DNA of 64,000 nt from Bdellovibrionales bacterium (GCA_965197855.1 OZ240230.1:301823-365822), one strand, 5' to 3'. Positions 6,355 through 57,181 are shown, counted from the first letter of the stretch. Translations and numbers: made by a program. The notes: a model not told the origin generated them from the letters alone.

Positions 6355-7846
6355 CTAACCAATACTCCCCTCGGAAAGGGTAAAATTCAAATCCATTTTG
6401 AACAAAAAAATCACGACTAGTACCTTCAATAATCTGGACACTCCCAAGATGTTTAGCTGTAATTTTCTTTTTTAACTGCTCCCTCTTTCCTCTTAAACTC
6501 TCATATCTTAAATACTTTTCCTGATTCACAAAACCTTGCAATTCTTTTTGAAAAAACACCAAATGTCTTCTAACCACCCGATTAATTTGTCTTCGAGATT
6601 TACGTAAATTCTCATCCACTAATCTTAAAGCATACTGTCCCACTTTGGAAGCTCTCCATGAATAAGGAAGCCCTTTTATGGTATTTCGCTCTGATTTTAG
6701 ATACTCAATATATTGGTGCAGCCAATTAAAATCACTTTCTCTATAAATTCTTTGTGCAATCACTACAGGAAAAGTTCCTTGACCTTCCTCCAATGACCTT
6801 AAAAGTTTGGAGTAATAATGAGTAGAAGATGAAGAAAGTATACCGCGAACTTTTCCATGTACAGGAAGGTAAGTTCTTTTAAACAAAGTCAGCATCTTTT
6901 CCATCTCTTCATACTTACAAATATACATATAAATAACCGCTCTTAATAATAAAGAACCCGGTTGGTAAACATCATCATAATAATTGGAATGAAGTGTTTG
7001 AAAACCATTGAGTGCTGAACGAAACTTACCAGCCCTCAGTAAAGTCCAACTGTTTTCAAATAACATATCATGCCAAAATGATGTGTCCCTTGGAATTTGT
7101 CGGTAATACTTAATAGCTAGATCCCATTTTTTAGCTTGATAGTACACTCGAGCCATCCCCATTAAAGCCGCCACTCGAATAGGATTTGTAATCTCTTTAT
7201 TCTTAGAAAGAATTTTTGAAAACGCTCTCACAGCCTCTCTATTTTTCTTTTGTTCTGCGTAGGATAGTCCTAAATTATACATAGCTTTATTGTAAACCGG
7301 ACTCGAAAAAGAAACTTTATTCAGATACAAAGCGGCCTTTTTATAATTTCCTTTATTCATCTCATATTTGCCAAATTGGTAATAGAGAGCATCCTTATAT
7401 TTTCCTTGAACTTTTTGAGCCCCTCCTTTCTGAATAGCAAATTGTATAGTTTGTTCATTTCCAACACGAGCCGCTATTTCTGATAAACGCTCCAAACTCA
7501 AACGAGTGTAATGACGATTGCCCTTCTGCACTACAGATAAAAACTGAAAAGAAGCGGCACTTAACAACCCCATTTTCAACAATGCCATACCTAATTGATA
7601 ACGAATTTCAGAACGTCTCTTCTTATATTTGGGGCTTTGACTAATCATAAATAGTTGTTTAGACCCCTCCCGATAATCTTGTTTTTTAATGAGCTCCAAA
7701 GCTCTTACCATTTGAATATTGGCTCTGACTTTCTTGCGAACTTCACTGGCACGCTTAGAAGAATAATAACGTTTGGATTTTGGCTGAGAAAAACCAGAAG
7801 CAGAAAATAATAAACAAAAAACAACACAATATATTTGAAGTTTCAT
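6308..7846 (-). CDS. TPR-repeat protein with signal peptide (GltC-like)
   Basis: Signal peptide MKLQIYCVVFCLLFSASGFSQ followed by TPR-like repeats. Same operon. Confidence 0.5.
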   Translation of the reverse strand: MKLQIYCVVFCLLFSASGFSQPKSKRYYSSKRASEVRKKVRANIQMVRALELIKKQDYREGSKQLFMISQSPKYKKRRSEIRYQLGMALLKMGLLSAASFQFLSVVQKGNRHYTRLSLERLSEIAARVGNEQTIQFAIQKGGAQKVQGKYKDALYYQFGKYEMNKGNYKKAALYLNKVSFSSPVYNKAMYNLGLSYAEQKKNREAVRAFSKILSKNKEITNPIRVAALMGMARVYYQAKKWDLAIKYYRQIPRDTSFWHDMLFENSWTLLRAGKFRSALNGFQTLHSNYYDDVYQPGSLLLRAVIYMYICKYEEMEKMLTLFKRTYLPVHGKVRGILSSSSTHYYSKLLRSLEEGQGTFPVVIAQRIYRESDFNWLHQYIEYLKSERNTIKGLPYSWRASKVGQYALRLVDENLRKSRRQINRVVRRHLVFFQKELQGFVNQEKYLRYESLRGKREQLKKKITAKHLGSVQIIEGTSRDFFVQNGFEFYPFRGEYWLDELGNYHYVGTQSCR

Positions 7847-7847
7847 A

Positions 7848-8681
7848 CTACCTCACCTGGCGCCTTGGAAAATAAAAACTCACACCAGTCGTCATAAGTA
7901 TATCCCAGTGATGAAAAACTGGAGTTCCCCCTAAAAGTTCCCCATAGTTTCCTCCTATCAATCCTCCATAGTATTGCCAGTTAAGATCTACACGAAAAGT
8001 CATATTTCTGGATATGGCATAAGATTGTCCAATACCAAATAAAATAGTTGGTTCTGACTTTTGACGTGTTAATACCCTTGTGCCATCACGTAAATTTTCA
8101 ACACCTGTAGTTTGACATTCCCCTATATTTCCAGCCGTCCCAACAAGCTCTGACTCAGGTGAATTGGAAGAAACTTCCTTATCAGAACACCGAACACGTG
8201 TTATCCCTCCTCCAAAAAAGAAAGACATTTCAAAAGGAATAACTTTGTTATCAAACCATGCCATCTTCCCATAAATAGGAATCCATTTATAAACCAATCC
8301 CACAAAATATATAGTACGGTCTCCTACTACGGAACTCACAATTCCCAGTTTCTCTGACATATCAATCCACACACTTCTTCGGAATTCAGACGTATAAAAA
8401 CCACGAATCTCCAATCCATGTTTTTCTAAAAAATAAAAAGCTAAATTCCCGCCTACACCCGCATTGATAAAAAATTCATTGCTAAAAAGAAGCAAAGCAG
8501 ATGGAGCAATTTCAAATCGACCGGTTTTAACCAAATAACGTCTTTGAATCACCACAATATCTGAAAAAGGAGAAAGGTTATTCAAGTAAAGAGATAAACT
8601 CTTAACAGATTCCGAAGAATCTTTGAACCAATCATCTCCTGAATCCTTCGCAACAGTCCACATCGGCGTAAAAGCCAACAT
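7848..8681 (-). CDS. small outer-membrane beta-barrel protein (GltA/GltB-like)
   Basis: About 277 aa with alternating hydrophobic beta-strand pattern and a Gly/aromatic-rich C-terminal strand (MTTGVSFYFP). Paired with a second barrel of similar size. Confidence 0.5.
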   Translation of the reverse strand: MLAFTPMWTVAKDSGDDWFKDSSESVKSLSLYLNNLSPFSDIVVIQRRYLVKTGRFEIAPSALLLFSNEFFINAGVGGNLAFYFLEKHGLEIRGFYTSEFRRSVWIDMSEKLGIVSSVVGDRTIYFVGLVYKWIPIYGKMAWFDNKVIPFEMSFFFGGGITRVRCSDKEVSSNSPESELVGTAGNIGECQTTGVENLRDGTRVLTRQKSEPTILFGIGQSYAISRNMTFRVDLNWQYYGGLIGGNYGELLGGTPVFHHWDILMTTGVSFYFPRRQVR

Positions 8682-8723
8682 AAAAAATAAAATTAATACT
8701 TTACAAAAAATATATCTATCTCC

Positions 8724-9539
8724 TTAAAATAATAAAATTCCAAAACCACCACCTACAATCGTTCGAAATAAAATATCTTTCTCAGTCTTTTCATAGGGTA
8801 TCACGTCTCTTCTATTCGCATAAAGATTACAAGAATCATCACCAATGTATTCATCACCCCGTTTAATATCATTACACCAGATGGGGTTAGGCGCATGATA
8901 AATAAGAAAGTTCAAAGATCCATGAAGGTAAAACCTTCGACCAATGAAAACTTTTTGATTGAATCCTACAAGGGCGGCATAGGTCCATCTCACATCCGAT
9001 TGGTATCTATTATAATCTAAGTCCAAAGCCAAAGCTCCCAACCCAAAATATATAGATAAATTTAAATTAGTGACAACATTTGTAGCCAAAGATATTTTTC
9101 CATAAAGGGGAGCCAATACATAACTTAAAAAGAAACCAAACTGAGGATGATGAACCTTCCCAGGATCAAAGACTGTCTTGAGTTTTTTTGTTTCAGATAT
9201 GGCTAAACCAATATGAGATAACCCAGGCCAAAAATAAAGGCTAGATATACGTACACCATGAGTTTCATTAAAAAAAAACTCTACAGCTCCAGAAAAAGTA
9301 AAAGCATGCAAAAAAGGCTCATCCATGCGACCCAAAAATGAACCGCTTATTCCCAGTTTATTTTTCAACTGAACCCTGCGGTTCATAGTTACTTTTTTGT
9401 TATTTTCAAAAACAGGAAACACTGATTCAGGAGCCAACTCTTCATCTGGAAAACGAATCTCTTTAGCTTCCAAAAAAGAAAGGTAAAATAATAATAAGAA
9501 TAAATAAAAATATTTCATCTGCTGTAGCCTAAATTTCAT
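8724..9539 (-). CDS. small outer-membrane beta-barrel protein (GltA/GltB-like)
   Basis: Signal peptide (FYLFLLLFYLSFLEA). 271 aa with a beta-strand pattern and a terminal aromatic residue (GGGFGILLF), typical of OM barrels. Confidence 0.5.
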   Translation of the reverse strand: MKFRLQQMKYFYLFLLLFYLSFLEAKEIRFPDEELAPESVFPVFENNKKVTMNRRVQLKNKLGISGSFLGRMDEPFLHAFTFSGAVEFFFNETHGVRISSLYFWPGLSHIGLAISETKKLKTVFDPGKVHHPQFGFFLSYVLAPLYGKISLATNVVTNLNLSIYFGLGALALDLDYNRYQSDVRWTYAALVGFNQKVFIGRRFYLHGSLNFLIYHAPNPIWCNDIKRGDEYIGDDSCNLYANRRDVIPYEKTEKDILFRTIVGGGFGILLF

Positions 9540-9617: not shown

Positions 9618-10949
9618 TTAAATATTAATAAGTACAGAGACAAAACCTCGATGCAACATTTTGGCATCTTCATGAATGGAATCCATTTGCATAATATATT
9701 TAAAATCAAAAGCCATATCCTTGTTAATAAAGTAACGAGCGGCTATTTGATGGCCTGTATAACCTGTGCCCCCAACATCAGAGTCTACAAAATGACTCAA
9801 CGTTACATCTTTAGGCAACTGGAAGAAATGATATCCGAGATTCCAATGTCCCGTACGATGAGAATGACCTAAAACCCCTCCAACTATGAAACCAAAAGAT
9901 TCTGCAGATGTGAAATTGGACTCAGCACCAAAGTTTTGCGTCAACTGCAAAGATAAAGAAAGAGGAACAGGATAAAATCTAATACTTTTAATGTTCATCT
10001 GTAAAAATAAATCGATAACAGAATAGTTATACATTAATTTTCTCTGTGCAGGTATTTCGACTGCAGAAGCACTTTCCTCTACTGACTCATTTTCAACTAC
10101 TGTAGTGGAATTTCTTCTACTCTCCGACAAAGCCCCTTTAGTTTGAACATTGTGATAGCTGACACCAGTACGCAAATCATAATCATTATTAGACATCAAT
10201 GCTTGAGCAGAAGCAGAAAACATGCCTTTATTTTGAGCATCAAACCATTCTTCATCTCTAAGAAGAAATCCTAATGATTGTTTTCGACTACTTAATTCTG
10301 TGCCATCATGCCTCCTCTCCACATCCGAGGCTGTAATCTGAGGCAATACAGGATTCACAAAAAACCATGAAGTTCTAAGATCAAATATATAACGGTTTTG
10401 AACAGATTTCCGATAGTGGGCAGAAACCCCTTCAGGAGCCAAATCTTCATCCCACAGAGGATTGTAACGAAGAGAATCCAAAAAAGGACTGCGATCTAAC
10501 TTCCCGAACTTTAAAACAGCATTTTCAACAGGTGAATAGGATACATAAGCGCCACTCAACCAAATAGGTTTTCCATCAAAACCACCCACAAACTGATCTT
10601 GATCATAATTTAAAACAGGTCGATAGTTATCTCCCTGTCCTCCAGATGCTAATTTAAAACTCCAAGACATCTGAGGATTGATATGTCCTTCAAAGCCCCC
10701 TCTCACACGAAGTTGAAAAGCATGTGTCAATTCTTGTTCAAAAAAATTCATATATCGGAATCTCATATCTCCATCAAAACCAAATGAATCCTCTGAGTTT
10801 AAGGAATCTGATTCCAATGACTGTACCAAACGATTGGATTGACCGGCCATATAAGCAACAAGCAAAGAAGAATTTAAATCTCTGCTAGTCTCAGCATGAG
10901 CCATCAACCCCCACATAAAAAATAAAATAATTAACAATTTCAATTTCAT
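9618..10949 (-). CDS. outer-membrane porin-like beta-barrel protein
   Basis: Signal peptide MKLKLLIILFFMWGLMAHA and a 443-aa sequence rich in alternating aromatic/Gly strands. First gene of the minus-strand cluster. Confidence 0.4.
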   Translation of the reverse strand: MKLKLLIILFFMWGLMAHAETSRDLNSSLLVAYMAGQSNRLVQSLESDSLNSEDSFGFDGDMRFRYMNFFEQELTHAFQLRVRGGFEGHINPQMSWSFKLASGGQGDNYRPVLNYDQDQFVGGFDGKPIWLSGAYVSYSPVENAVLKFGKLDRSPFLDSLRYNPLWDEDLAPEGVSAHYRKSVQNRYIFDLRTSWFFVNPVLPQITASDVERRHDGTELSSRKQSLGFLLRDEEWFDAQNKGMFSASAQALMSNNDYDLRTGVSYHNVQTKGALSESRRNSTTVVENESVEESASAVEIPAQRKLMYNYSVIDLFLQMNIKSIRFYPVPLSLSLQLTQNFGAESNFTSAESFGFIVGGVLGHSHRTGHWNLGYHFFQLPKDVTLSHFVDSDVGGTGYTGHQIAARYFINKDMAFDFKYIMQMDSIHEDAKMLHRGFVSVLINI

Positions 10950-11235: not shown

Positions 11236-13338
11236 ATGGGACAAAAAAGAGATATCGAAAAAATTAGAAATATAGGAATTTCAGCGCATATTGACTCTGG
11301 AAAAACAACCTTAACAGAAAGAATCTTGTTTTACACAGGACGTATCCACACCATACATGATGTCAAAGGCAAAGATGGTGTGGGAGCGAAAATGGACTCT
11401 ATGGAGTTAGAGCGAGAAAGAGGTATTACAATTAAATCTGCCGCTACTTCCGTTCAATGGAAAGACGGCGCTATTAATATTATTGATACCCCTGGACATG
11501 TGGATTTCACCATTGAAGTGGAAAGAGCTCTTCGTGTTTTAGATGGAGCTATTTTGGTGTTATGCGGAGTTGCTGGAGTTCAATCTCAATCTATTACTGT
11601 GGATCGACAAATGCGACGTTATAAAGTGCCGCGAATTGCCTTTATCAATAAATTAGATCGAGTAGGAGCTAATCCTTTCCGTGTCACTGAAATGCTAAGA
11701 GAAAAGTTAAACCTTAATGCTGTTTTAATGCAGATTCCTATTGGATTGGAAGATAAGCATGAGGGTGTTGTAGATCTGGTTCGAGGAAAAGCTGTTTATT
11801 TTACAGGTGAACAAGGTGAAAAAATGGAATATGGGGAAATTCCAGATGATCTTAAGAAAGATTACAAAAAATACAGAAATGAAATGATTGAAAAATTAGC
11901 AGATTTTAATGATGAACTGGCTGAAAAATTCCTAAACGAAGAAGAAGTGTCAGAAGATTTAATCCACAAAGTTTGCAGAAAAGCCTGTCTTGCTTTAGAG
12001 ATTACACCTGTTTTCATGGGTTCCGCCTTTAAAAATAAAGGAGTGCAAGCTTGTTTGAATGCTGTCTTAGCTTATCTGCCCACACCTTATGATATTCAAA
12101 ATGAAGCCTTGGATATGGAACAAGAAGAAAAAGAAATTCCCGTAGCTGTAGATCCGGAAAAACCTTTTGTAGGCTTGGCTTTTAAGTTGGAAGACGGACG
12201 CTTTGGACAATTAACATATATGAGAATTTATCAAGGCACCGTAAAAAAAGGAGATTTTATTATCAACAGTCGAACGCAAAAAAAAGTCAAAGTACCACGT
12301 CTGGTTTATATGCATGCCGATGATATGGAAGATATTGAATCAGCTTCAGCAGGTGATATTGTGGCCTTTTTTGGAATTGACTGTGCTTCCGGAGATACCT
12401 TTTGTGACGACAAGATTCGCTACACGATGACCTCTATGTTTGTACCGGAGCCTGTGATGTCTTTAGCTGTATCTCCCAAGGAAAGATCAGGGTCCGCGAA
12501 TTTTACCAAAGCACTTCAAAAATTTAGAAAAGAAGACCCTACATTTTTTGTTCACAGAGATGAAGAATCCGCTCAAACCATTATCTCGGGTATGGGTGAA
12601 CTTCATTTAAATATTTACATTGAAAGAATGAAAAGAGAATTTTCCTGTGATGTGGTCACTGGGCAACCTCAGGTGGCTTACCGTGAAACCATTTCTAAAC
12701 CTATAGATTTTGATTACACTCACAAAAAGCAGACAGGAGGAGCAGGACAATTTGCCAAAGTGGTAGGAAGCCTTGAACCGATGGATCAAAACGCCGCTAA
12801 AAACTATGAGTTTGTCAGTCGAATCACAGGAGGAAAAATTCCTAAAGAGTACATTCCAGCTGTGGATAAAGGTTTTATAGAACAAATGAAAAAAGGACCC
12901 CTTATTGGCTTTCCTATTGTTGGTGTTAAAGCATGTTTAACGGATGGAGCTTACCACGATGTGGACTCTTCAGAGCTGGCTTTTAAAGTTTGTGCCATGG
13001 CCGCATTTCGTGAGGCTTACCTCAAAGCAAAACCAACAGCTTTGGAACCTATTATGAAGCTAGAGGTATCTTGTCCTGAAGAATTTCAAGGTAATGTGAT
13101 TGGAAATATTAACCAAAGAAGAGGAGTTATTAAAGGAACTCATTCCACGGATCAGTTTACAACTATTGAAGCCGAAACTCCCCTTTCAGAAATGTTCAAT
13201 TACTCCACAGAGCTTCGCTCCTCTACACAAGGCAAAGGAGAATTCACAATGGAATTTTCTCACTATAGCAAAGTCCCTCAAGTGATACAGGAACAACTTG
13301 CTAAAGAATATACAGAGAAAAAAGCAGGCTCTTCATGA
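11236..13338 (+). CDS. fusA: translation elongation factor G
   Basis: [34 protein letters not shown] and NKLDR GTPase motifs. 700 aa, with full-length similarity to EF-G. Confidence 0.95.
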
Positions 13339-49137: not shown

Positions 49138-49926
49138 CTATAAATTATCTAAAATCTGTTGAGCAGAATCTCGAATGGCAATATTTATACTGTCGTCTGT
49201 AATCAGATTTTTTAATAATGCGCTTACATCATTATTCAAGATATTCATTTTCCCTAAGAACTGAATACAGTTTATAATAATAAGAGTATTAATTTTAGAT
49301 CCACTTTCAATCTCACTTTGTATCACATTCATCAAAGTTCTGTGAATATATCTCACAACAGACTGCGCTCTACTTCGAGCTTTTCTATACTTATTCTTAC
49401 TCCACTTACCATAATTCATTCCATCCATAAACCCACTCAAAGAAATTTCTGCTTGTAATCTATCTAATTTGTCTAATCTCAAAGATTCTATAGAATAAAT
49501 AGTATTCAAAAGTTCCAAGGCCACCATACGTATTCTTGTATTGGTATTATTCTGTAACAAATCAAATAGATATCTATGCAATAAAGGATGATATTGAAGC
49601 TTTTCATCAGACAAAACGTCGATCATTCCCACCTTTATAAACGGATCTGTAGTTTGTCTATCCAAAGATTCTTGATCTTGAATGGTTTTCAAATGGTACA
49701 CTAAAATAGCTCGCAAATACTCTTCAGCCGTTTGTCGCACACTTAAGTTATTACTACTTAATAACTGCACTAAATAACTCTGTGTTTTATAATCAAATAT
49801 ATAATCTTCTTGTGTAAGAATAAGAACACGTACCTTGGTAGAAGGGTCATTTCTTAGGGCTCTGTTGAAACTTTTTTCAATTTGAGTAATCATTGTATTA
49901 ATATACATACTACTTAGAGGGTCCAC
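49138..49926 (-). CDS. HEAT-like repeat protein, C-terminal two-thirds homolog of 50378-51529
   Basis: ITQIEKSFNRALRNDPSTKVR..YLVQLL.. aligns with IGQIEKSLKRALRDDPSTDLR..YLVQFL.. of the upstream paralog. GTG start lies 1 nt after the stop of 49928-50293. Confidence 0.45.
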   Translation of the reverse strand: MDPLSSMYINTMITQIEKSFNRALRNDPSTKVRVLILTQEDYIFDYKTQSYLVQLLSSNNLSVRQTAEEYLRAILVYHLKTIQDQESLDRQTTDPFIKVGMIDVLSDEKLQYHPLLHRYLFDLLQNNTNTRIRMVALELLNTIYSIESLRLDKLDRLQAEISLSGFMDGMNYGKWSKNKYRKARSRAQSVVRYIHRTLMNVIQSEIESGSKINTLIIINCIQFLGKMNILNNDVSALLKNLITDDSINIAIRDSAQQILDNL

Positions 49927-49927
49927 A

Positions 49928-50293
49928 TCACATCTTATTTAATGCTTGTTTTCTTTTAACTAAAGTAGATACTACAATTTGACGTATCTCCGCTAAAGAC
50001 TCTGTTCTTAAAAGATTCAATAAAGACCTATGAATTCTAAAATTCATTACGTTATGTTCTTCAAAAAATTTAAGTGCTTTTTGCTTATCTTTTAGATTGC
50101 TGTCAGATTGTAATTCACTAATTTTTTGGCTGATATTTGATTTTTCGGAAAAAGAATCTTGGCAGTCTTTAGAAATAGCTTGTCCTGCACACACGTAACA
50201 AAAAACAACAATTAAAAAAACTGTATTTAATACATATCCTTTTGAATAAAGCATATTAAGCCCCTTAATATGAAACCCAATATACTTTATCAA
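49928..50293 (-). CDS. secreted N-terminal-third homolog of 50378-51529
   Basis: VFCYVCAGQAISKDCQDSF..KQKALKFFEE..LLRTESLAEIRQ aligns with VFCYAYFGQAVSEDCQTSF..KEQALKFFET..LLKREPSAELRQ. Confidence 0.45.
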   Translation of the reverse strand: MIKYIGFHIKGLNMLYSKGYVLNTVFLIVVFCYVCAGQAISKDCQDSFSEKSNISQKISELQSDSNLKDKQKALKFFEEHNVMNFRIHRSLLNLLRTESLAEIRQIVVSTLVKRKQALNKM

Positions 50294-50377
50294 GGATTCT
50301 ATAACAAGATCAGAACAAACTCCACACCCTACACTTAAAAGTCAGTATTGTAATTTTTACAAAGGCGCTAATATTGT

Positions 50378-51529
50378 TTAGAAGTTATTAGGATTAGAGT
50401 GCCTAAATGTGAGTTCGTCTAAAGCCCTCTGAGCAACATTTTGAGTTCTAATATGACTGTCATCTTCACTAAGATCTTTTAACAATCTTTCTATATCGCG
50501 ATCAAAAATACTCGTTTTTCCTAAAATCTGAATGCTACTTATAACAAGAGAAGAACGACCCTCAATCTCACCTTGTATAACATCCATCAATGTTCTTTGA
50601 ATATAACGAATAGTAGATTCAGCTCTTTTTTGAAATTTATGTTTACTGACAGCCCAACCACTAACATGTACATCAGAAACAGCTTCCTGTTGTACTTTAT
50701 GAAGTAATTGTAATTTTAAAGACTCTATAGAATGAATAATATTCAAAAGATCCAAAGCAACACTGTGTGCTTTTTTACTGGCACTCTTTTGCAAGACATG
50801 GGATAGACTTTCATGTAACAAAGGATCGTATTGAAGTTCTTTCCTAGCTAAATATGATATTGATGAACGTCCAAGTCTAGGACTGTTGGCAACATTCTCT
50901 ATAGAACCCTTTATACGCTCTAGATAAAAAGACAAAATACTCTTTAAACGTTGTTGAACCGCGTTTTGTACATCCACATTCGTATCATCTAAAAATTGCA
51001 CTAAATATTCCTGCATTCTGTGATCAGTGACATAAGGTTCTTGATCAATAATTGAGATACGCAGATCTGTAGAAGGATCATCTCTTAATGCTCTCTTTAA
51101 AGATTTTTCAATTTGCCCAATCATTACTCTGCTATACCCAATTTTTAGAGGATTTCTTTCAAGAGAAATTTTTTGATTTAACGCATTTCTGCGCTCTGCT
51201 AAAGTATATACTATGGCTTGACGTAACTCAGCCGACGGCTCTCTTTTTAAGAGGCCCATTAAAAACATATGAACATTAAGGTTGCTTAAACTACGTGTTT
51301 CAAAAAATTTAAGAGCTTGTTCTTTATATTGCAAATCCCTGCTAGATTGCAATCGACTCACCATTTGATCTGCATTTACATATTTGAAAAAAGAAGTTTG
51401 ACAATCTTCAGAGACAGCTTGACCAAAATACGCATAACAGAAAACAGCAAGTGGTAGAAATGTTTTTAAATATCCCTTTAAATGAAACATCCTTGAACGC
51501 CTTGTAATAACGTCACTGTACTCTATCAA
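50378..51529 (-). CDS. secreted HEAT-like repeat protein (full-length paralog)
   Basis: Signal-like hydrophobic segment. Collinear with the two downstream ORFs taken together. Confidence 0.5.
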   Translation of the reverse strand: MIEYSDVITRRSRMFHLKGYLKTFLPLAVFCYAYFGQAVSEDCQTSFFKYVNADQMVSRLQSSRDLQYKEQALKFFETRSLSNLNVHMFLMGLLKREPSAELRQAIVYTLAERRNALNQKISLERNPLKIGYSRVMIGQIEKSLKRALRDDPSTDLRISIIDQEPYVTDHRMQEYLVQFLDDTNVDVQNAVQQRLKSILSFYLERIKGSIENVANSPRLGRSSISYLARKELQYDPLLHESLSHVLQKSASKKAHSVALDLLNIIHSIESLKLQLLHKVQQEAVSDVHVSGWAVSKHKFQKRAESTIRYIQRTLMDVIQGEIEGRSSLVISSIQILGKTSIFDRDIERLLKDLSEDDSHIRTQNVAQRALDELTFRHSNPNNF

Positions 51530-51743
51530 TCATTTTATAACAAGATTAGAAGGTTAGAAGGGTAAAATTTACACTGCTTTTTAAAGAAAAATTTTTCTTA
51601 TTATACAGCGTATATAATCAATTCTTAATAAGATGTTAAGAAATAATAGAAAAACTAAAGACGTCATTCCTGTGACTTGGCTCAGCTGTTTTCGGTTGGC
51701 ACCTCAACCACCTCGCTCCTGCGAAAGCAGGAATCCAGTCATA

Positions 51744-51777
51744 TAAAAAAAGGGAGAACTCTCGTTCTCCCTTTTTG
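51744..51777 (-). terminator. rho-independent terminator downstream of the silent pilin cassette
   Basis: Stem agggagaac / gttctccct with loop tctc, flanked by an A-run and a T-run. Near-identical to the terminator after the expressed pilin. Confidence 0.7.
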
Positions 51778-51826
51778 AATCACACTGTGGCAACATCTAA
51801 ACAAACCACAGTCCCAATCTTATTAA

Positions 51827-52419
51827 TTAAGTACAAGTAGTACCAAAGTCAGCAGCGACCCCTTCTGAACTTTCTCGAATTACGCCATTATGATCAATTT
51901 CATTACCTATAAAAGTATTACCTGATATGTGTCCCCAAACTCCCATTTTGTAACTCGTAACGGTCAATTCACAATCAGGGTCTGCAGTAGAAGTAGCATC
52001 TCTTATTGCAGTAGCTGTTACCAGTAATGTAGAAGGCGTAGTAGCAGGTGGAATAACAGCCTGACAATTGGCATCAACTGCTGTGAATCCAATCAGATTT
52101 ATCTTTCCTGGCCCAGTTGTTGCTGGAGCATCACAATCTGTAGCTACTGTACAAGTTTGTCCCACTCTTCTGGAATTAGTACAAGCTAGTGGTGTACCAG
52201 CGCATACTCCTGCTTGTGCGGGCTGAAGATTCCCATATAATTTACTGCTTACAAGTGATCTCATACCAACATTTTGTATTGAAGCCGCAACAGGAAGTGT
52301 GTCTCTTTCACAATAAGAATCCAGTTCAACTCCAAAAGCTAACCAACCTTTATGAAGCTGTAGTAAATCAGTCTTATAAGCCGTTTTCTTAGCGGATTTT
52401 CTGTACTCATTATATGCAG
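51827..52419 (-). other. promoterless, leaderless alternative type IV pilin C-terminal cassette
   Basis: Translation ..AYNEYRKSAKKTAYKTDLLQLHKGWLAFGVELDSYCERDT.. matches residues ~31-70 of the pilin at 54379. It ends with the same ..GHISGNT..NGV....CT C-terminus and has paired Cys. It lacks the G/FSLVELM leader and hydrophobic helix. The Met-initiated N-terminal extension in the ORF track (to 52519) is not pilin-like. Confidence 0.75.
52299..52419. repeat. left inverted repeat (IR-L) of the putative pilin inversion switch
   Basis: Reverse complement of 52367-52419 equals 54467-54519 with 1 mismatch in 53 bp. Homology continues at lower identity (roughly 85-90% by eye) to 52299 / 54587. Confidence 0.85.
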
Positions 52420-52556
52420 ATATGAGTATGACCTTCTGCTCTTTAAACAGAATGTGGTTTTTTGTGTGATTTTGCATAGTTTCTGCGGTGATTTTGCTGT
52501 GAATAAACCGCAAAATCACCGCACATATAAAAACAAGAAATCAAGCCAAAAAAGGT

Positions 52557-53756
52557 CTAAACTGTATACGCAAAATCTTTTGAATGGCTTAATACATTAT
52601 AATTCGGCAAAGATTTTTTCCCCAATACACTAAAAACCTGACTGGTTTTTTGAGCTGTATCTTTTGTCAACAAAGCCACAGCCTTGGCATATCTTTCCGT
52701 CATTCGGCTAGATCGATGTCCAAGACTGGCCTGGACAGAAGCCAAATCCTTTGTGGCAAGTAAAGCCATAGTGGCATAAGAATGTCTTAAAATATGAGTT
52801 GAACGCCATGGCAGGTTTAAAGCTTGGAACCCTTGATTAAAAATTCTTTGAATAGTGACATAATTTAAAAGATCTCCATTGTCCTTTTTAAAAAGCAAAC
52901 TATTTCCTGAATCTTCCTCTCTCATTTCTTTTAAAATTTTTATTAAATCATCCGGCAAAATTAACAGTCGAGAAGAGGTGTTGGTTTTTGTAGTTTCCAC
53001 TAACTCAGGTCTTCTAGTATGAAAGTCCCATCTGATAATCCTCATCACTCTGGCTGTACCTTCTTCTAAATTAATAGCATCCCACTTCATTGCACAAGCT
53101 TCACAGATTCGAACCCCTGTGAGCAGCATAAAAATAGCAATCCTCCAGTAAACAGGATTTTCCCTGTTTTTTTTAATCCAGTCTAACCAGTTTCTGGCAT
53201 CCATAGGCCTCATAAAATAATCAGGACATCTAGGGCGAATAATTTTGTAATAACAGGATTGTTTATGTTGCTTTGTCACCGGATTATTAAAATTTTCATT
53301 CACAAAATTTTTATACCAATTCAAAACAGTGGTCAGAAGCTTTAACTCAAATTGAAAACTTTTTCTGGAAGCCGTATGAATTGTAGGATGTTTCTTCAAC
53401 CAATCAATCCAATTATGGATGTGTCTTGCGTTCAATTGATCCATTTCTACATTGCATAGAGGACTTTCCATAAGATATTTCAGTCCATTTAAGTAAGACT
53501 GCCGTGTTGGTTTTTGTAAAAAAGGAATAGCTTTCTTTTGAAATATCTTAATGCAGTCAGAAAATAAATTCACAGAGCTTTCTTTTTCTAAAGGCTCTCC
53601 TTTTAAAAACTTTCTTTTATCTTCATGCCACTGGGTAGCCTCTGATTTTGACTCAAACGTTTTGTAATAAACACGTCTTCCTTTGACGTAAATTTGAGCC
53701 TGGTAACGGACTTTTTTTTCTCCATTCTTTTTATAACATCTTCTTACTATAGCCAT
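52557..53756 (-). CDS. tyrosine site-specific recombinase (phage-integrase family)
   Basis: 399 aa. C-terminal catalytic motifs TGVRICEA.., HILRHSYATMAL.., LGHRSSRMTERYAKA (R..H-x-x-R..H/Y). Arm-type N-terminus (KKVRYQAQIYVKGRRVYYKTFESKSEATQW). Confidence 0.85.
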   Translation of the reverse strand: MAIVRRCYKKNGEKKVRYQAQIYVKGRRVYYKTFESKSEATQWHEDKRKFLKGEPLEKESSVNLFSDCIKIFQKKAIPFLQKPTRQSYLNGLKYLMESPLCNVEMDQLNARHIHNWIDWLKKHPTIHTASRKSFQFELKLLTTVLNWYKNFVNENFNNPVTKQHKQSCYYKIIRPRCPDYFMRPMDARNWLDWIKKNRENPVYWRIAIFMLLTGVRICEACAMKWDAINLEEGTARVMRIIRWDFHTRRPELVETTKTNTSSRLLILPDDLIKILKEMREEDSGNSLLFKKDNGDLLNYVTIQRIFNQGFQALNLPWRSTHILRHSYATMALLATKDLASVQASLGHRSSRMTERYAKAVALLTKDTAQKTSQVFSVLGKKSLPNYNVLSHSKDFAYTV

Positions 53757-54259
53757 AATTTAACCTCCTTTTGATTAAATTACGCTTTGTAAACGTTTAA
53801 AATGAAGAATAGAAAGACTTCTTGTTTAAATCAAAGATATTTTTCACAAGAGACATTTTATTGATTTTTTAATTAGTATTTGTTACAAATAGAGATAAAC
53901 AATAGAAGTGTCTTTAATTGATAAAATTTAAAAACGAAAACACACAAAAAATCTTAATATATTTAAAGAAAAATTTTTACTAAATGATAGAAATGTTATA
54001 GCTACTCATTTCAGCAAAGTAACTAAGACTTAGGGAGGGGTTTAAACTTAGAGGGTAGAATCTATACATCATTACAAAAAACTCAGTTCTGTTGATTTTT
54101 TAGGCAGTTAGTCTAAGCCAAAGAAGGCTAAAAGCATAATCTGTCCATAATTGTTTCAGAATGAAACAAAATAATAATTTTTTATAAGAAAGCTTAACAT
54201 ACCCAGCACTTATGATTATATTTTAGGATGAAGGAGGTCAGAATATTCAAAAAAATTAA

Positions 54260-54279
54260 GGTTTTACAATTGTAAAACC
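54260..54279. promoter_or_regulatory. perfect 20-bp palindrome upstream of the pilin gene
   Basis: ggttttacaattgtaaaacc, about 100 bp upstream of the pilin ATG and inside the putative invertible segment. Confidence 0.5.
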
Positions 54280-54378
54280 GTAAGTAAACAAAGTAATAAA
54301 AAATGGTTTTTTATTACAAACTGAAATTAACTTATAAATTTGCTATTAAAATAGCAATTTTATTATAAGGAGGAACAA

Positions 54379-55080
54379 ATGAAATTAACGAAAAAACGAG
54401 GATTTTCGCTCGTTGAGCTGATGGTTGTTGTGGCCATTATGGGAACTTTAGCTGCGATAGCAATTCCTGCATATAATGAGTACAGAAAATCTGCTAAGAA
54501 AACGGCTTATAAGACTGATATGTTGGGCTTTCATAAAGGTATGTTAGCTTTTGGAGTTGAGCTGGATTCTTATTGTGAAAGAGACACTGCACCCGAAGAA
54601 GTTTCCATATCTAATATAGGTATGGGGTCACTTGTGTCTAGTAAACTTTATGGTACTAAGGGTCTTTGTGAAATTCCAAATCCTGCAATACTAAATTGTG
54701 ATTGCAACGGACAATCAAACACAACAAGTTGTGCTGCACATATGAGTAGTGATACTATTCCTGTCGCTTGTGGTTGTACTTGGGCAAATACTGGTGGAAA
54801 TGGTCCCGGTAAACACAACTTCATAGGTTTTGGTGGTAATGGAGCCACTCCGTGTAGTGGTACAGCTCTTGTAGATACTCAAATATTAGGAACAGATACT
54901 GCAGGGGCAACTACTACCGCTGATACTAGCTGTGATCTAGGAGTTACTGAATATGAATTAGGAGTGTATGGACACATTTCTGGAAATACTGGCTTTGGTG
55001 TTTCTGTAAATCAAAATGGAGTTTTATCAAGCGAAGTAACACCCACACTTGTTGCGGCTGCGGACGCAAACTGTACTTAA
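54379..55080 (+). CDS. type IV pilin (prepilin with N-terminal methylation/cleavage motif)
   Basis: Strong RBS aaggagg. Leader MKLTKKRG / FSLVELMVVVAIMGTLAAIAIPAY (G-1, F+1, E+5). C-terminal Cys pair (..SCD....NCT). Confidence 0.9.
   Translation: MKLTKKRGFSLVELMVVVAIMGTLAAIAIPAYNEYRKSAKKTAYKTDMLGFHKGMLAFGVELDSYCERDTAPEEVSISNIGMGSLVSSKLYGTKGLCEIPNPAILNCDCNGQSNTTSCAAHMSSDTIPVACGCTWANTGGNGPGKHNFIGFGGNGATPCSGTALVDTQILGTDTAGATTTADTSCDLGVTEYELGVYGHISGNTGFGVSVNQNGVLSSEVTPTLVAAADANCT
54467..54587. repeat. right inverted repeat (IR-R) of the putative pilin inversion switch
   Basis: See IR-L. The repeat begins at pilin codon ~30 (P-AYNEYRKS) and is in frame in both cassettes. Confidence 0.85.
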
Positions 55081-55122
55081 TGGATGTGTGTTTGATTTAA
55101 TCGCTATTATAGCGTAATTCAG

Positions 55123-55152
55123 AAAGGGAGAACGAAAGTTCTCCCTTTTTTT
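55123..55152 (+). terminator. rho-independent (bidirectional) terminator after the pilin gene
   Basis: Stem aaagggagaac / gttctcccttt with loop gaaa, followed by a T-run. Shared with the convergent ATPase gene. Confidence 0.75.
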
Positions 55153-56284
55153 ATAGGGCTTTATCAACACAAAATTTCCAAAAAGGCAGTACTGTAATAC
55201 CCTTATCTACTTCAATATGCTTAGACCCTAAGTGAACCTGATAAAACTTAGGAATATTTGTTCTCTTTCTAAAATAGTGAATATGAGGAGACACAGCTCT
55301 TTCTCCGGTCTTACACTCCACAGCAAACACAGGTTTTTTATTTTTAATAACTACAAAGTCAATTTCTCTTTTGTCCACATCTCTTAAAAACCTAAGCTCC
55401 ATTTTTTCTCCTTCTGTATCCTCTAAAAAATGACAGTATTTTAATAAATGACTAGCTACCATATTTTCAAATCTAAAAGCCCGGTCTTCAATAGCACTCC
55501 AATCCCATAAATAAAGCTTTTGTTCTTTTTTAACAGCACGAATCTTCAAAGACCCAAAAGGGGCAATCCGATATGAGTAATAAATTTGATCTAAAATTTG
55601 TACCCACTGACTTAGTGTCATATGATGAACATTCAAATCATCTGCAAGATTCTTAATCGATAACGGAGACCCTACACGTTCACTCAAAGCATCTGCTAAT
55701 AATTCAATAGAAGTCAGCTCCTTTACTCGATTTAACTCTCTGACATCATCATTGATAATCCTATAAACTCTCTCCCTATGCCATAGTTTCAAGTTCTTCT
55801 CTGTTCCATTAAAAAACGGCTCTGGAAATCCTCCAAGCTTTAATAAATCTTCAACAGTACTCTCATTAGCAGATAGCTCTTTTACAGTTAAAGGATGCAG
55901 TCTTAAATAACGATAACGACCTAATAACGAATCCCCTCCTTTACGATATAAATCCAAACGCGCTGAACCTGTCACAAGAAACTTATATTTATATTTTTTT
56001 GTATCATAAAGCCCTTTTACAAGAGATCTCCAATTTTTAAATTTATGAACTTCATCAAATAACAACATTTTCTTATCAACCGGCAATTCTAAATTTTTAA
56101 TCCTATATCGAGCCTGTGGATCATCCCAATTAAGATATGCACTGTTGCTTATAGAAGGAGGATTAAGAAACTGAAGACATAATGTTGTTTTTCCTACCTG
56201 CCTAGGGCCGCCCACAAAAACCATCCTATTTCTCAAAAAAGATTTTATGGGTTTTAATAAATATCTGCTGTGAAAATTTTTCAT
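55151..56284 (-). CDS. AAA+ ATPase with C-terminal DUF4143-like domain
   Basis: Walker A GGPRQVGKTTL, Walker B LLFDEVH and the typical ~380-aa architecture of the AAA_14/DUF4143 family. Confidence 0.7.
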   Translation of the reverse strand: MKNFHSRYLLKPIKSFLRNRMVFVGGPRQVGKTTLCLQFLNPPSISNSAYLNWDDPQARYRIKNLELPVDKKMLLFDEVHKFKNWRSLVKGLYDTKKYKYKFLVTGSARLDLYRKGGDSLLGRYRYLRLHPLTVKELSANESTVEDLLKLGGFPEPFFNGTEKNLKLWHRERVYRIINDDVRELNRVKELTSIELLADALSERVGSPLSIKNLADDLNVHHMTLSQWVQILDQIYYSYRIAPFGSLKIRAVKKEQKLYLWDWSAIEDRAFRFENMVASHLLKYCHFLEDTEGEKMELRFLRDVDKREIDFVVIKNKKPVFAVECKTGERAVSPHIHYFRKRTNIPKFYQVHLGSKHIEVDKGITVLPFWKFCVDKAL

Positions 56285-56304
56285 ATTGAAGTATTTTAAA
56301 ATAA

Positions 56305-56334
56305 GAGTAAATGATAGTCAACTATCATTTACTC
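56305..56334. promoter_or_regulatory. perfect 14-bp inverted repeat (2-nt spacer) just upstream of the ATPase start codon
   Basis: gagtaaatgatagt ca actatcatttactc, followed by a third half-site-like gagtaaataatagt. Confidence 0.45.
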
Positions 56335-56573
56335 ACGAGTAAATAATAGTTGAGTATCACATGCTCATCAACGTTGTTTCCTGTCGCAAACTCATGGATT
56401 TGCTCATACAAAACTTGTAAATTCGTAGAAAAAGTATGCGAATCACTATTTCATCTTGAATCACTTTATTTCAGAAAATTTTTACTGCATTTCAATTTAT
56501 CTAAATAAATCAATAAGTTGCAACTTATTGCACCAGAACTTGCAACTATGGTTATGTAATCAAAGGAGACCAG

Positions 56574-56663
56574 ATGAAAAATAAATTAACTTTTATTGGA
56601 ATTTCCGAAGGCATGAAAATTGCCGGAGCCTTTGACACATTCTCTGAAGCAGAAGGAACATAA
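56574..56663 (+). CDS. candidate small protein (29 aa)
   Basis: aaggag RBS 5-6 nt before the ATG. Translation MKNKLTFIGISEGMKIAGAFDTFSEAEGT. Too short for the ORF track, with no homology evidence. Confidence 0.25.
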   Translation: MKNKLTFIGISEGMKIAGAFDTFSEAEGT

Positions 56664-56701
56664 GAAATTGAAATATTCTGGATTCACTCAAAAACTTAAC
56701 A

Positions 56702-57181
56702 TTATTCTCTTTCTCTCCCTGAGCAAAATCCACCTGCATAAGGTTCATCACAATGTTCTAAACCAAACACTGTCACAGTCGTTGAGCCAAAGCGCTCCAC
56801 CGGAGTTACCTCCTCTGTTGTAAAGTCCCCTACATAAGCTTCATCACCCGGACCATTAACAACTTTAGCAGAAATAAGCAATTTTGAAAAATCCACATCA
56901 GCATCTACCGAAATGGAAAAACGAATAGGAAATTCTTTAATATTATCAACTCTATGCTCTTTGACTGTTCGAGTTGTTTCCGAATCTTCCTCAACATAAA
57001 GACGAATGATAGCATGTGACTCTGAAGTAAACTTAAAATCCCCTTTGTAAGAATGCTGGCTCTGAGCAGGTATAATTTTTCCGGACACAGATGAACCAAG
57101 TATATTACAAGCAGACAATGTGGTAAGGACACATAAAAAAGATATCAAATGCAATATATAAAAATTTTTTAAAATGAACAT
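56702..57181 (-). CDS. putative lipoprotein (possibly YbaY-like)
   Basis: Lipobox LTTLSACN. 159 aa. The family assignment is only a weak recollection. Confidence 0.4.
   Translation of the reverse strand: MFILKNFYILHLISFLCVLTTLSACNILGSSVSGKIIPAQSQHSYKGDFKFTSESHAIIRLYVEEDSETTRTVKEHRVDNIKEFPIRFSISVDADVDFSKLLISAKVVNGPGDEAYVGDFTTEEVTPVERFGSTTVTVFGLEHCDEPYAGGFCSGRERE

Follow-up and report, generated by a model that had tools for sequence, protein, structure and literature searches.

A probable inversion switch of pilin C-termini on a Bdellovibrionales chromosome

A pilin gene, a silent cassette and a recombinase between inverted repeats

The locus considered here lies in a stretch of chromosomal DNA from a Bdellovibrionales bacterium (GCA_965197855.1, OZ240230.1:301823-365822), analysed at its full length of 64,000 nucleotides and called the window throughout. 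Between positions 51,744 and 55,152 of the window stand a complete prepilin gene, a second pilin C-terminal coding region that has no leader, and, between the two, a gene for a tyrosine recombinase. An earlier note on this DNA had proposed that the central segment is invertible, so that one constant pilin N-terminus could be joined to either of two C-terminal cassettes. All of the features that it named sit where it had placed them, and the arm of the inverted repeat measures 187 nt. They are given below in window coordinates; a slash within a leader marks the cleavage point, and L-numbers (L001, L002 and so on) denote loci from relatives' genomes or contigs.

51749-51775, no strand: bidirectional intrinsic terminator hairpin 3' of the left cassette, GGGAGAAC-N4-GTTCTCCC, with flanking A/T runs
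51827-52419, minus strand: silent, leaderless pilin C-terminal cassette L, 196 codons, intact from AYNEY to the stop
52404-52419, minus strand: recombination site S, conserved core and right arm CTGCATATAATGAGTA; the 53-nt core and 187-nt arm continue 3'
52420-52433, minus strand: left arm of site S, non-coding, GGTCATACTCATAT; kept in L004 as GGTCATACTCCTAT; unrelated to the pilin N-terminus
52420-54466, no strand: predicted invertible segment of 2047 bp, with the left arm of S, the GTGATTTTGC block, the recombinase, promoters and the pilin leader and N-terminus
52465-52523, no strand: three GTGATTTTGC-type motifs adjoining site S within the invertible segment; candidates for arm-type or accessory binding sites
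52557-53756, minus strand: tyrosine recombinase, 399 amino acids (aa), PF00589, divergent from the pilin
53757-54378, no strand: divergent intergenic region, its last ~230 nt conserved, with a sigma-70-like promoter and the pilin ribosome-binding site (RBS)
54379-54466, plus strand: constant pilin part, leader MKLTKKRG/F and hydrophobic N-terminal helix to Ile29, from profile matches and sequence
54379-55080, plus strand: complete prepilin gene, 233 aa, leader MKLTKKRG/FSLVELM, with RBS
54467-54482, plus strand: recombination site E, CTGCATATAATGAGTA, within the expressed gene (53-nt core 54467-54519; 187-nt arm 54467-54653)
54467-55080, plus strand: C-terminal cassette R, the one expressed at present; 203 codons, with 38 % identity to cassette L in the variable part
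55123-55149, no strand: bidirectional intrinsic terminator hairpin 3' of cassette R, GGGAGAAC-N4-GTTCTCCC and a T-run

The inverted-repeat arms (52233-52419 and 54467-54653) are 187 nt long and 81 % complementary, with 2047 nt between them, and the core (52367-52419 against 54467-54519) matches at 52 of 53 nt, which is the single mismatch reported before. A 23-nt probe taken from the core finds two sites only in the 64 kb, against an expectation of 0 from 100 dinucleotide shuffles, and two copies of the site imply a single invertible segment. Homology between the copies sets in abruptly, at CTGCATATAATGAG, and the DNA 5' of the onset is unrelated: directly before it the right copy carries the pilin N-terminus (..GCGATAGCAATTC) and the left copy other DNA (..GGTCATACTCATAT). 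Within the pilin gene the repeat begins at codon 30 (CTGCATATAATGAGTA...). The recombinase is the sole open reading frame (ORF) of at least 100 aa between the arms, in agreement with the earlier description of this segment as the pilin promoter and 5' end together with a 399-aa tyrosine recombinase. When 52420-54466 is inverted in silico, the constant N-terminus and cassette L form an uninterrupted, in-frame prepilin of 226 aa, and cassette R is left leaderless behind the non-pilin sequence of the S side. The fusion of leader and N-terminus to an alternative C-terminus that had been proposed is thus what inversion gives in silico, and the comparisons with relatives described below support it. 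Folding also bears out the near-identical terminators that had been seen after both cassettes, with hairpins of -23 kcal/mol (z = -5.7) on the right and -20.9 kcal/mol (z = -4.2) on the left.

The canonical prepilin leader and helix ascribed to the right-hand gene are recognised by two prepilin N_methyl profiles above their cutoffs, PF07963 (32.6 bits; cutoff 21.2) and TIGR02532 (32.2 bits; cutoff 16.3), and the protein has the G/F..E5 cleavage and methylation motif and the hydrophobic alpha-1 helix of a type IV pilin. Cassette L has no prepilin leader, Shine-Dalgarno sequence or promoter of its own; the in-frame residues upstream of it (..KEQKVILIS) are not pilin-like, and the gene caller's product for it (P0001) holds no N_methyl domain. 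With its 196-codon frame intact, it is the in-frame cassette without start signals that the earlier note had made of it. Both cassettes end in the tail noticed at the outset, GHISGNT..NGV and a C-terminal Cys-Thr, and both keep a scaffold made up of the remaining alpha-1 helix, GPGK-NFIGF, GVYGHISG and the terminal Cys. Their differences (38 % identity) fall in Cys-rich, low-confidence central regions and in C-terminal regions. An AlphaFold2 (AF2) model of the pilin has a helix at residues 11-60 (predicted local distance difference test, pLDDT, 89-96), beta strands at 147-211 and a stretch below 50 at residues 95-141; the variable regions coincide with this last, Cys-rich part and with the C-terminal third. 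On this model, the regions in which the cassettes differ are presumably exposed on the pilus surface. A Foldseek search of the head domain against the PDB returned no match at E <=0.001. The pilin family is large, with 519 matches, and several full-length paralogues often occur in one genome.

The recombinase matches PF00589 (Phage_integrase) at 72.9 bits, against a cutoff of 27.1. Among 62 homologues its catalytic residues R216, K257, H321 and R324 never vary, and H347 and Y356 are kept in >=90 %. Assignment to a named family is another matter. No NCBIfam model was reached: XerA scored 75 bits against a required 220 and XerC 65 against 335, XerD also fell far below, and the integron IntI-type model TIGR02249 gave 28.9 bits against a cutoff of 265. 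A tblastn search of the 72,556 plasmids in PLSDB, which include IncI plasmids carrying rci, returned only 57 generic integrase records at <=26 % identity, and the viral contigs of IMG/VR only generic integrases at 20-25 % identity. The AF2 model (pLDDT 81.7) consists of an N-terminal three-stranded sheet and helix (strands 2-10, 13-24 and 27-34, helix 37-51; pLDDT 79-93), a helical core-binding domain and a catalytic domain. Structure comparison places it nearest to Tn1549 integrase, XerA, full-length lambda integrase and XerH, and full-length lambda Int chains align to it over 363-382 columns. A Pfam search of the N-terminus for an arm-binding domain gave only a sub-threshold SAM-like match. 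The modelled fold points to a lambda/Tn916-style, apparently heterobivalent integrase, not one of the Rci type, and because the enzyme is not an Rci relative, the shufflon serves as an analogy and not as a family assignment. The comparison with Rci made in the earlier note stands at the level of function, as a swap of C-termini; there is no NCBIfam match, and the fold is nearest to Tn1549 and lambda Int.

Two non-coding regions of the segment deserve description. Three GTGATTTTGC-type motifs are packed into 56 bp between the recombinase stop and site S, out of only five (<=1 mismatch) in the whole window; two of the three form a 17-bp palindrome (52484-52523) that folds into a hairpin of -25 kcal/mol with no T-run. 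The block is kept 3' of the recombinase in L003 and L004 and is also found before leaderless cassettes of L004 and L002. It occupies the end of the segment opposite the pilin N-terminus, and being inside the segment it would always stay beside whichever cassette is leaderless. Given the arm-binding-type N-domain of the modelled enzyme, we infer that these repeats are candidate arm-type sites. At the other end, the 230 nt that precede the pilin start show high conservation among the window, L003 and L004 and contain a sigma-70-like promoter site, TTAACA-17-TATATT, at 54194-54222 on the plus strand; inspection by eye for a sigma-54 promoter upstream of the pilin found none. Two palindromes also lie in the pilin 5' region, GGTTTTACAATTGTAAAACC (54260-54279), which is conserved in L003 and L004, and TTGCTATTAAAATAGCAA (54338-54358, directly before the RBS), and both may be operators or structures of the 5' untranslated region. 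An Rfam scan of 50000-57000 gave only a chance-level match to MicX (E = 0.1; 22.6 bits against a gathering score of 75).

The recombination site among relatives

Seven leaderless cassettes were found in five genomes, one each in the window, L002 and L006 and two each in L004 and L007, and the homology of all seven starts at the same nucleotide, ..CT/GCATAYAATGAGTAC, where the slash marks the breakpoint. The breakpoints are at 52417(-) in the window, 8016(+) in L002, 4970(-) and 9892(+) in L004, 12713(+) in L006, and 12319(+) and 15126(+) in L007. At least five unrelated sequence types precede these cassettes, which are all intact at 191-208 codons and only 30-47 % identical to one another in their variable part. 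The same junction recurs in the database proteins P0106 (MNFNGT/AYNEY..) and P0114 (MKRT/AYNEY..), the slash here again standing for the breakpoint.

Locus L002 offers the most telling arrangement. A stub at 9645-9758(-) comprises promoter, RBS, leader and N-terminus and ends in AYNEYS*, and opposite it lies a leaderless cassette at 8001-8591(+). What links stub and cassette is only a 27-nt inverted repeat, in which 20 bp, ATTCCTGCGTATAATGAGTA, are shared exactly. Judged by sequence, the pair is what inversion at the site would leave, and it delimits the putative functional site to about 16-20 bp. A shared repeat of 20 bp is short for recombination of the RecA type, which favours site-specific exchange.

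The pattern of conservation points the same way. The 16-nt string CTGC[AG]TA[TC]AATGAGTA stands unaltered in all 11 of the recombination-linked copies, namely the seven leaderless cassettes, the L002 stub and three full genes beside close recombinase orthologues, and in none of 15 stand-alone full-length paralogues, where AYNEY is encoded by way of GCT, GAA and other codons. The copies of the site are phylogenetically non-independent, hence no P value is given for this difference, which is what constraint at the DNA level would predict. In design the site is lopsided: CTGCRTAYAATGAGTA is conserved in all 11 copies, and the 5' arms are unrelated, of at least five types.

Close orthologues of the recombinase occur in L003 (86 % identity), L004/L008 (81 %), L006 and L007 (69 %) and L083 (70 %), and all five of these loci carry this pilin family or the site. 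The contig of L083, a long-read (ptg) assembly from sample ERZ19489113, ends inside the recombination site (12116-12131), at ..tatggttattcCAGCATATAATGAGTA, about 1 kb 3' of its recombinase; this is the same nucleotide at which the homology of the L002 stub stops, and the sample is the same. Structural heterogeneity at the site may have broken the assembly there. A similar reading of the Logan contig L005, which ends inside both arms, was rejected, since a k=31 graph would break in any case at an exact inverted repeat of 34 nt.

The closest comparison at the level of the whole locus is with L004/L008 (metagenome-assembled genome, MAG, RHO3_bin_17 / ROBB21 scaffold). Its layout is that of the window: pilin(-), recombinase(+), repeat block and inverted leaderless cassette(+), with the terminators and the left arm of S (GGTCATACTCCTAT) also kept. 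Orthologues in the flanks include ComM (88 %), DUF533 (73 %), a 188/183-aa protein (72 %), a 159-aa protein (68 %) and an SLT-domain protein (64 %), and such orthologous flanks argue for a stable chromosomal feature and not a recent insertion. AAA_14 genes that appear to swap sides between the window and L004 were set aside, as they are not orthologues (20 % identity).

Locus L004 has further repeats of its own. A direct duplication of 699 bp (4280-4978 and 6832-7530; 99.7 % identical), made up of the expressed cassette and its terminator, brackets AbiEi/AbiEii, and one of the two leaderless cassettes, S1, is a 99.7 % duplicate of the expressed cassette. HicB/HicA lie between two direct copies, of about 21 bp, of TTTTTATGTGCGGTGATTTTG (9203-9222 and 9779-9800), which is part of the repeat block. 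The AbiE and HicBA arrangements look like cassette-style insertions at the locus.

The proposed switch and its alternatives

The shared breakpoint, the L002 stub, the conservation of the site, the linkage to the recombinase and the architecture of L004 together make it probable, on comparative sequence evidence, that the locus is a functional, chromosomal inversion switch in which the recombinase exchanges two pilin C-terminal cassettes. The recombinase would synapse sites S and E and exchange strands within or beside CTGCRTA, flipping the 2047-bp segment so that either cassette R, as at present, or cassette L continues the constant N-terminus, and the displaced cassette would become the leaderless one. 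The junctions predicted for the flipped state are ..GCAATTCCTGCATATAATGAG...GATTTACTACAGC between the N-terminus and cassette L, and ..CATACTCATATCTGCATATAATGAG...GATATGTTGGGC between the left arm of S and cassette R. More speculatively, the arm-binding-type N-terminal domain might bind the GTGATTTTGC repeats, and each inversion might amount to a reaction between an attP-like and an attB-like site that regenerates the same pair of site types, giving a reversible switch that needs no directionality factor. The pay-off would probably be an altered pilus surface, with changed specificity as a phage receptor or for prey or host surfaces, though this too is speculative.

Several observations weigh against such a switch. 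The window and L004 share one orientation state relative to their flanks; the earlier note had looked to relatives for both additional cassettes and a flipped locus, and additional cassettes are indeed present, two each in L004 and L007, but the syntenic L004 is not in the flipped state. A search of 5.8 billion proteins with the hybrid pilin of the flipped state retrieved, at 99 % identity, nothing but the leaderless ORF of the window itself, the next match being at 60 %, and scanning metagenome contigs of the Joint Genome Institute with the recombinase yielded no close relative, the best match being a 54 % fragment. Exact queries of a contig index with the window's recombinase and with paralogue P0018 returned nothing. 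Cassette S1 of L004 and the two cassettes of L007 run in the same direction as the nearest full-length gene; within 17 kb, no E-type site is found in L006 or L007, and a cassette is missing from L003. These direct-orientation or incomplete loci suggest additional reactions (excision, integration, duplication) or decay. Finally, the wider recombinase family (40-60 % identity) is multicopy, with up to 7 members per genome, and about 56 of its 69 copies are not beside pilins; a subset accompanies another pilin family. A role as dedicated invertase is accordingly proposed for the close recombinase clade only.

Some of the same evidence could be accommodated without any switching. If the left cassette were a frozen relic of a past duplication or rearrangement in a pilin family with many paralogues, then a single orientation, the same in the window and L004, would be expected, as would degenerate relatives such as L003 without its cassette and L006 and L007 without their E site; full-length pilin paralogues are, moreover, common without a recombinase (L080, L081 and L082). 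Yet all seven cassettes are open over about 200 codons of AT-rich DNA despite 50-70 % divergence in the variable part, and frames that stay intact while they diverge argue for purifying selection, and hence expression. The inverted repeat, the left arm of S, the accessory block and the terminators are also conserved between the window and L004, and the recombinase is intact with all of its catalytic residues, which again argues against a relic. The decaying, repeat-less remnant of an ordinary duplicated gene that the earlier note had envisaged as a contrary outcome is thus not what the relatives display, and a relic appears quite improbable. Exchange by a different route is a rather unlikely explanation, if slightly less so. 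A 53-nt core with one mismatch, within a 187-nt repeat of 81 % identity, is long enough for RecA-dependent recombination or gene conversion of the Neisseria kind, in which case the recombinase beside it would play no part and might be, for example, a leftover integrase. The leaderless, promoterless copy does resemble a pilS-type silent cassette, and the first 54 nt after the site are alike within genomes at 0.94, 0.91 and 0.87, against a between-genome mean of 0.81, a homogenisation that suggests gene conversion. What RecA-dependent exchange does not predict is one exact breakpoint in seven cassettes with unrelated upstream DNA, a stub and cassette in L002 that share only 20 bp, conservation of the site at synonymous positions in the linked copies (11/11) and not in the stand-alone ones (0/15), or a linkage and divergent arrangement with an intact recombinase that are kept across genomes 14-30 % diverged.

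That the enzyme is the integrase of a mobile element or prophage which targets the N-terminal coding region of pilins, the repeats being its att sites, is highly improbable. Such an origin would suit a fold like that of lambda and Tn916 integrases with an arm-binding-type N-domain, a recombinase family that is multicopy, and the variable toxin-antitoxin (TA) and defence cargo beside the locus in relatives (HicBA, AbiE, HipA and DarT), as well as the direct repeats of L004, that is, the 699-bp duplication around AbiE and the ~21-bp copies around HicBA. Against it, the repeats that bracket the recombinase are inverted and not direct, contrary to the direct att repeats that the earlier note had named as a possible finding, and no other element genes lie between them. 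G+C is uniform across the region (31-38 %), the flanks are orthologous in a genome whose recombinase is 81 % identical, and IMG/VR holds no relative above 25 % identity. An integrated element was rejected on the grounds of its inverted repeats, uniform G+C and syntenic flanks.

The inversion switch, then, is the reading preferred here, and a bolder version of it may be sketched, though as a whole it is doubtful. A lambda/Tn916-type heterobivalent integrase might have been domesticated as a pilin invertase, with arm-type sites in the segment and a self-resetting reaction that requires no directionality factor, and the locus might also act as an integron-style platform that captures or duplicates leaderless cassettes and TA or defence genes, coupling variation of the pilus as phage receptor to anti-phage defence in small-genome Bdellovibrionales. 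The platform part of this idea draws on AbiE within the 699-bp duplication and HicBA within copies of the repeat block, on the directly oriented cassettes of L004 and L007, and on the presence of pilin paralogues in defence islands.

Genomic setting, known systems and significance

The closest recombinase homologues and all 69 genome loci come from MAGs of uncultured Bdellovibrionales/Oligoflexia, many of them with chromosomes of 1.3-2 Mb, which bears out the earlier note's pointer to Bdellovibrio-like bacteria. The window locus itself has a uniform G+C of 31-38 % and housekeeping-type flanks (RuvB, ComEC-like, ComM/Mg-chelatase-like, DUF533 and an SLT-domain protein). Convergent with the expressed pilin is a gene for an AAA_14/DUF4143 ATPase, at 55151-56284(-), which matches PDC-S01, a candidate defence family of PADLOC (E = 1e-48). 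On the other side, at 49138-51529(-), lie tandem HEAT-repeat paralogues, a 383-aa copy at 50378-51529 and a second copy broken up into two ORFs, of 121 aa (49928-50293) and 262 aa (49138-49926); the L004 protein at this position is only 38 % identical.

Genes for defence and TA systems surround the locus and its paralogues. Pilin paralogues and recombinases are found in defence- and TA-rich islands at L082, L080, L001, L006 and L083, where the neighbours include Cas12a, RES, Shedu SduA, a retron-type reverse transcriptase, SIR2-HerA, a KAP NTPase, DarT-Macro, BrxC/D, TerB, HipA, HicBA and CBASS (SMODS + HORMA + AAA). Other combinations of pilin and recombinase exist as well. The 1.55-Mb genome OZ245336.1 contains at least three pilin-recombinase modules (L039, L046 and L049, each at about 6550-9015), in which a pilin of a different family, with about 70 conserved 5' codons and an unrelated 3' part, is followed by a 318-aa recombinase of the same family as the one in the window; these recombinases are 86-93 % identical in nucleotide sequence between copies. 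At L040 (7099-9670) a recombinase is flanked by two inverted full-length pilin genes. The partnership of pilins and recombinases seems to be recurrent in the clade. The more distant locus L001 (7205-12988), whose recombinase is 47 % identical, contains five pilin genes or gene fragments, with leaders of their own, in two inverted blocks around a DarT-Macro gene; the inverted repeats of 421 nt (98 %) and 253 nt (89 %) cover promoter and N-terminus, and several of the pilin copies are frameshifted. Its pilin repeats follow another, whole-gene style.

Programmed switches of pilin C-termini have precedents in IncI-type plasmids, with their Rci shufflons, and in Moraxella, where the recombinase is Piv. 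Like the R64/IncI shufflon, which acts on PilV, the present locus encodes a tyrosine recombinase beside the switch and offers alternative C-termini to a constant pilin N-terminus. An sfx site of Rci has a left arm of 12 bp that varies, a core of 7 bp and a right arm of 12 bp that is conserved (PMC11852207), and the sites here are asymmetric too: core and right arm, on the cassette side, are conserved, and the left arm varies. The differences are several. The enzyme has an N-terminal arm-binding-type domain, whereas Rci has an extra C-terminal domain; there is one segment with two sites instead of four segments with seven; the segment carries the constant part and the recombinase, and the R64 segments carry the variable cassettes; the pilin is a chromosomal one of type IVa style (6-8-residue leader, G/F, E5) and not a plasmid-borne type IVb minor pilin; and a candidate accessory repeat block lies beside one site.

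Piv is a recombinase with a DEDD motif that resembles the IS110/IS492 transposases, whereas the enzyme here is a PF00589 tyrosine recombinase, not Piv-type, and is the only gene in its segment. The Moraxella arrangement has the variable halves inside the invertible segment and the promoter and N-terminus outside it; here promoter and N-terminus are inside and the variable cassettes outside. The tfpQ/tfpI inversion of Moraxella bovis/lacunata (Marrs et al. 1988, cited in PMC11868660) is similar in other ways, as it inverts two chromosomal pilin C-terminal regions with a crossover in coding sequence just after the conserved N-terminus, and its invertible region is about 2 kb. By its defining enzyme the locus is a member of neither the R64 shufflon nor the Moraxella Piv family; it is probably the same kind of device, of convergent origin.

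Other systems share individual traits. Neisseria pilE/pilS works by RecA-dependent, non-reciprocal gene conversion from many silent copies (PMC11868660), and both systems contain a promoterless, 5'-truncated silent copy that can be expressed only after recombination with the expression locus; the window differs in having one silent cassette, an exact, conserved site, a geometry that is reciprocal, and a site-specific recombinase linked to it. In the Vpma/Vsa systems of Mycoplasma, inversions by a tyrosine recombinase move one expression module in front of silent surface-protein genes (PMC11868660), which is akin to the single promoter and 5'-end module that would be moved before alternative silent genes here, but those systems involve lipoproteins in place of pilins, many cassettes and a simple enzyme of the Xer type. 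With the integrases of lambda and Tn916/Tn1549 the modelled recombinase appears to share an N-terminal beta-sheet and helix followed by core-binding and catalytic domains, and the short repeats that cluster at a distance of 45-105 bp from one core site are reminiscent of arm-type sites. Sequence identity to them is only 14-18 %, the sites here are inverted, so that there is no element to integrate or excise, and no excisionase-like gene is present.

A full-text literature search found no description of pilin inversion in Bdellovibrionota, nor of a pilin invertase of the lambda-Int type, which is not proof of absence. If the proposed switch is real, it would be a third, independently evolved solution to pilin switching, set apart by a different recombinase lineage (lambda/Tn916-integrase-like), a different phylum (small-genome, uncultured Bdellovibrionota) and a chromosomal pilin of type IVa style, and asymmetric, sfx-like sites would have evolved convergently in the same conserved part of a pilin gene. 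The invertase and its site would also make up a compact, possibly orthogonal pair for shufflon tools in synthetic biology. For the bacteria themselves, the switch would mean that the surface of the type IV pilus varies in a group whose pili are thought to mediate contact with prey or host, and this variation might serve the evasion of phages or an altered specificity of attachment.

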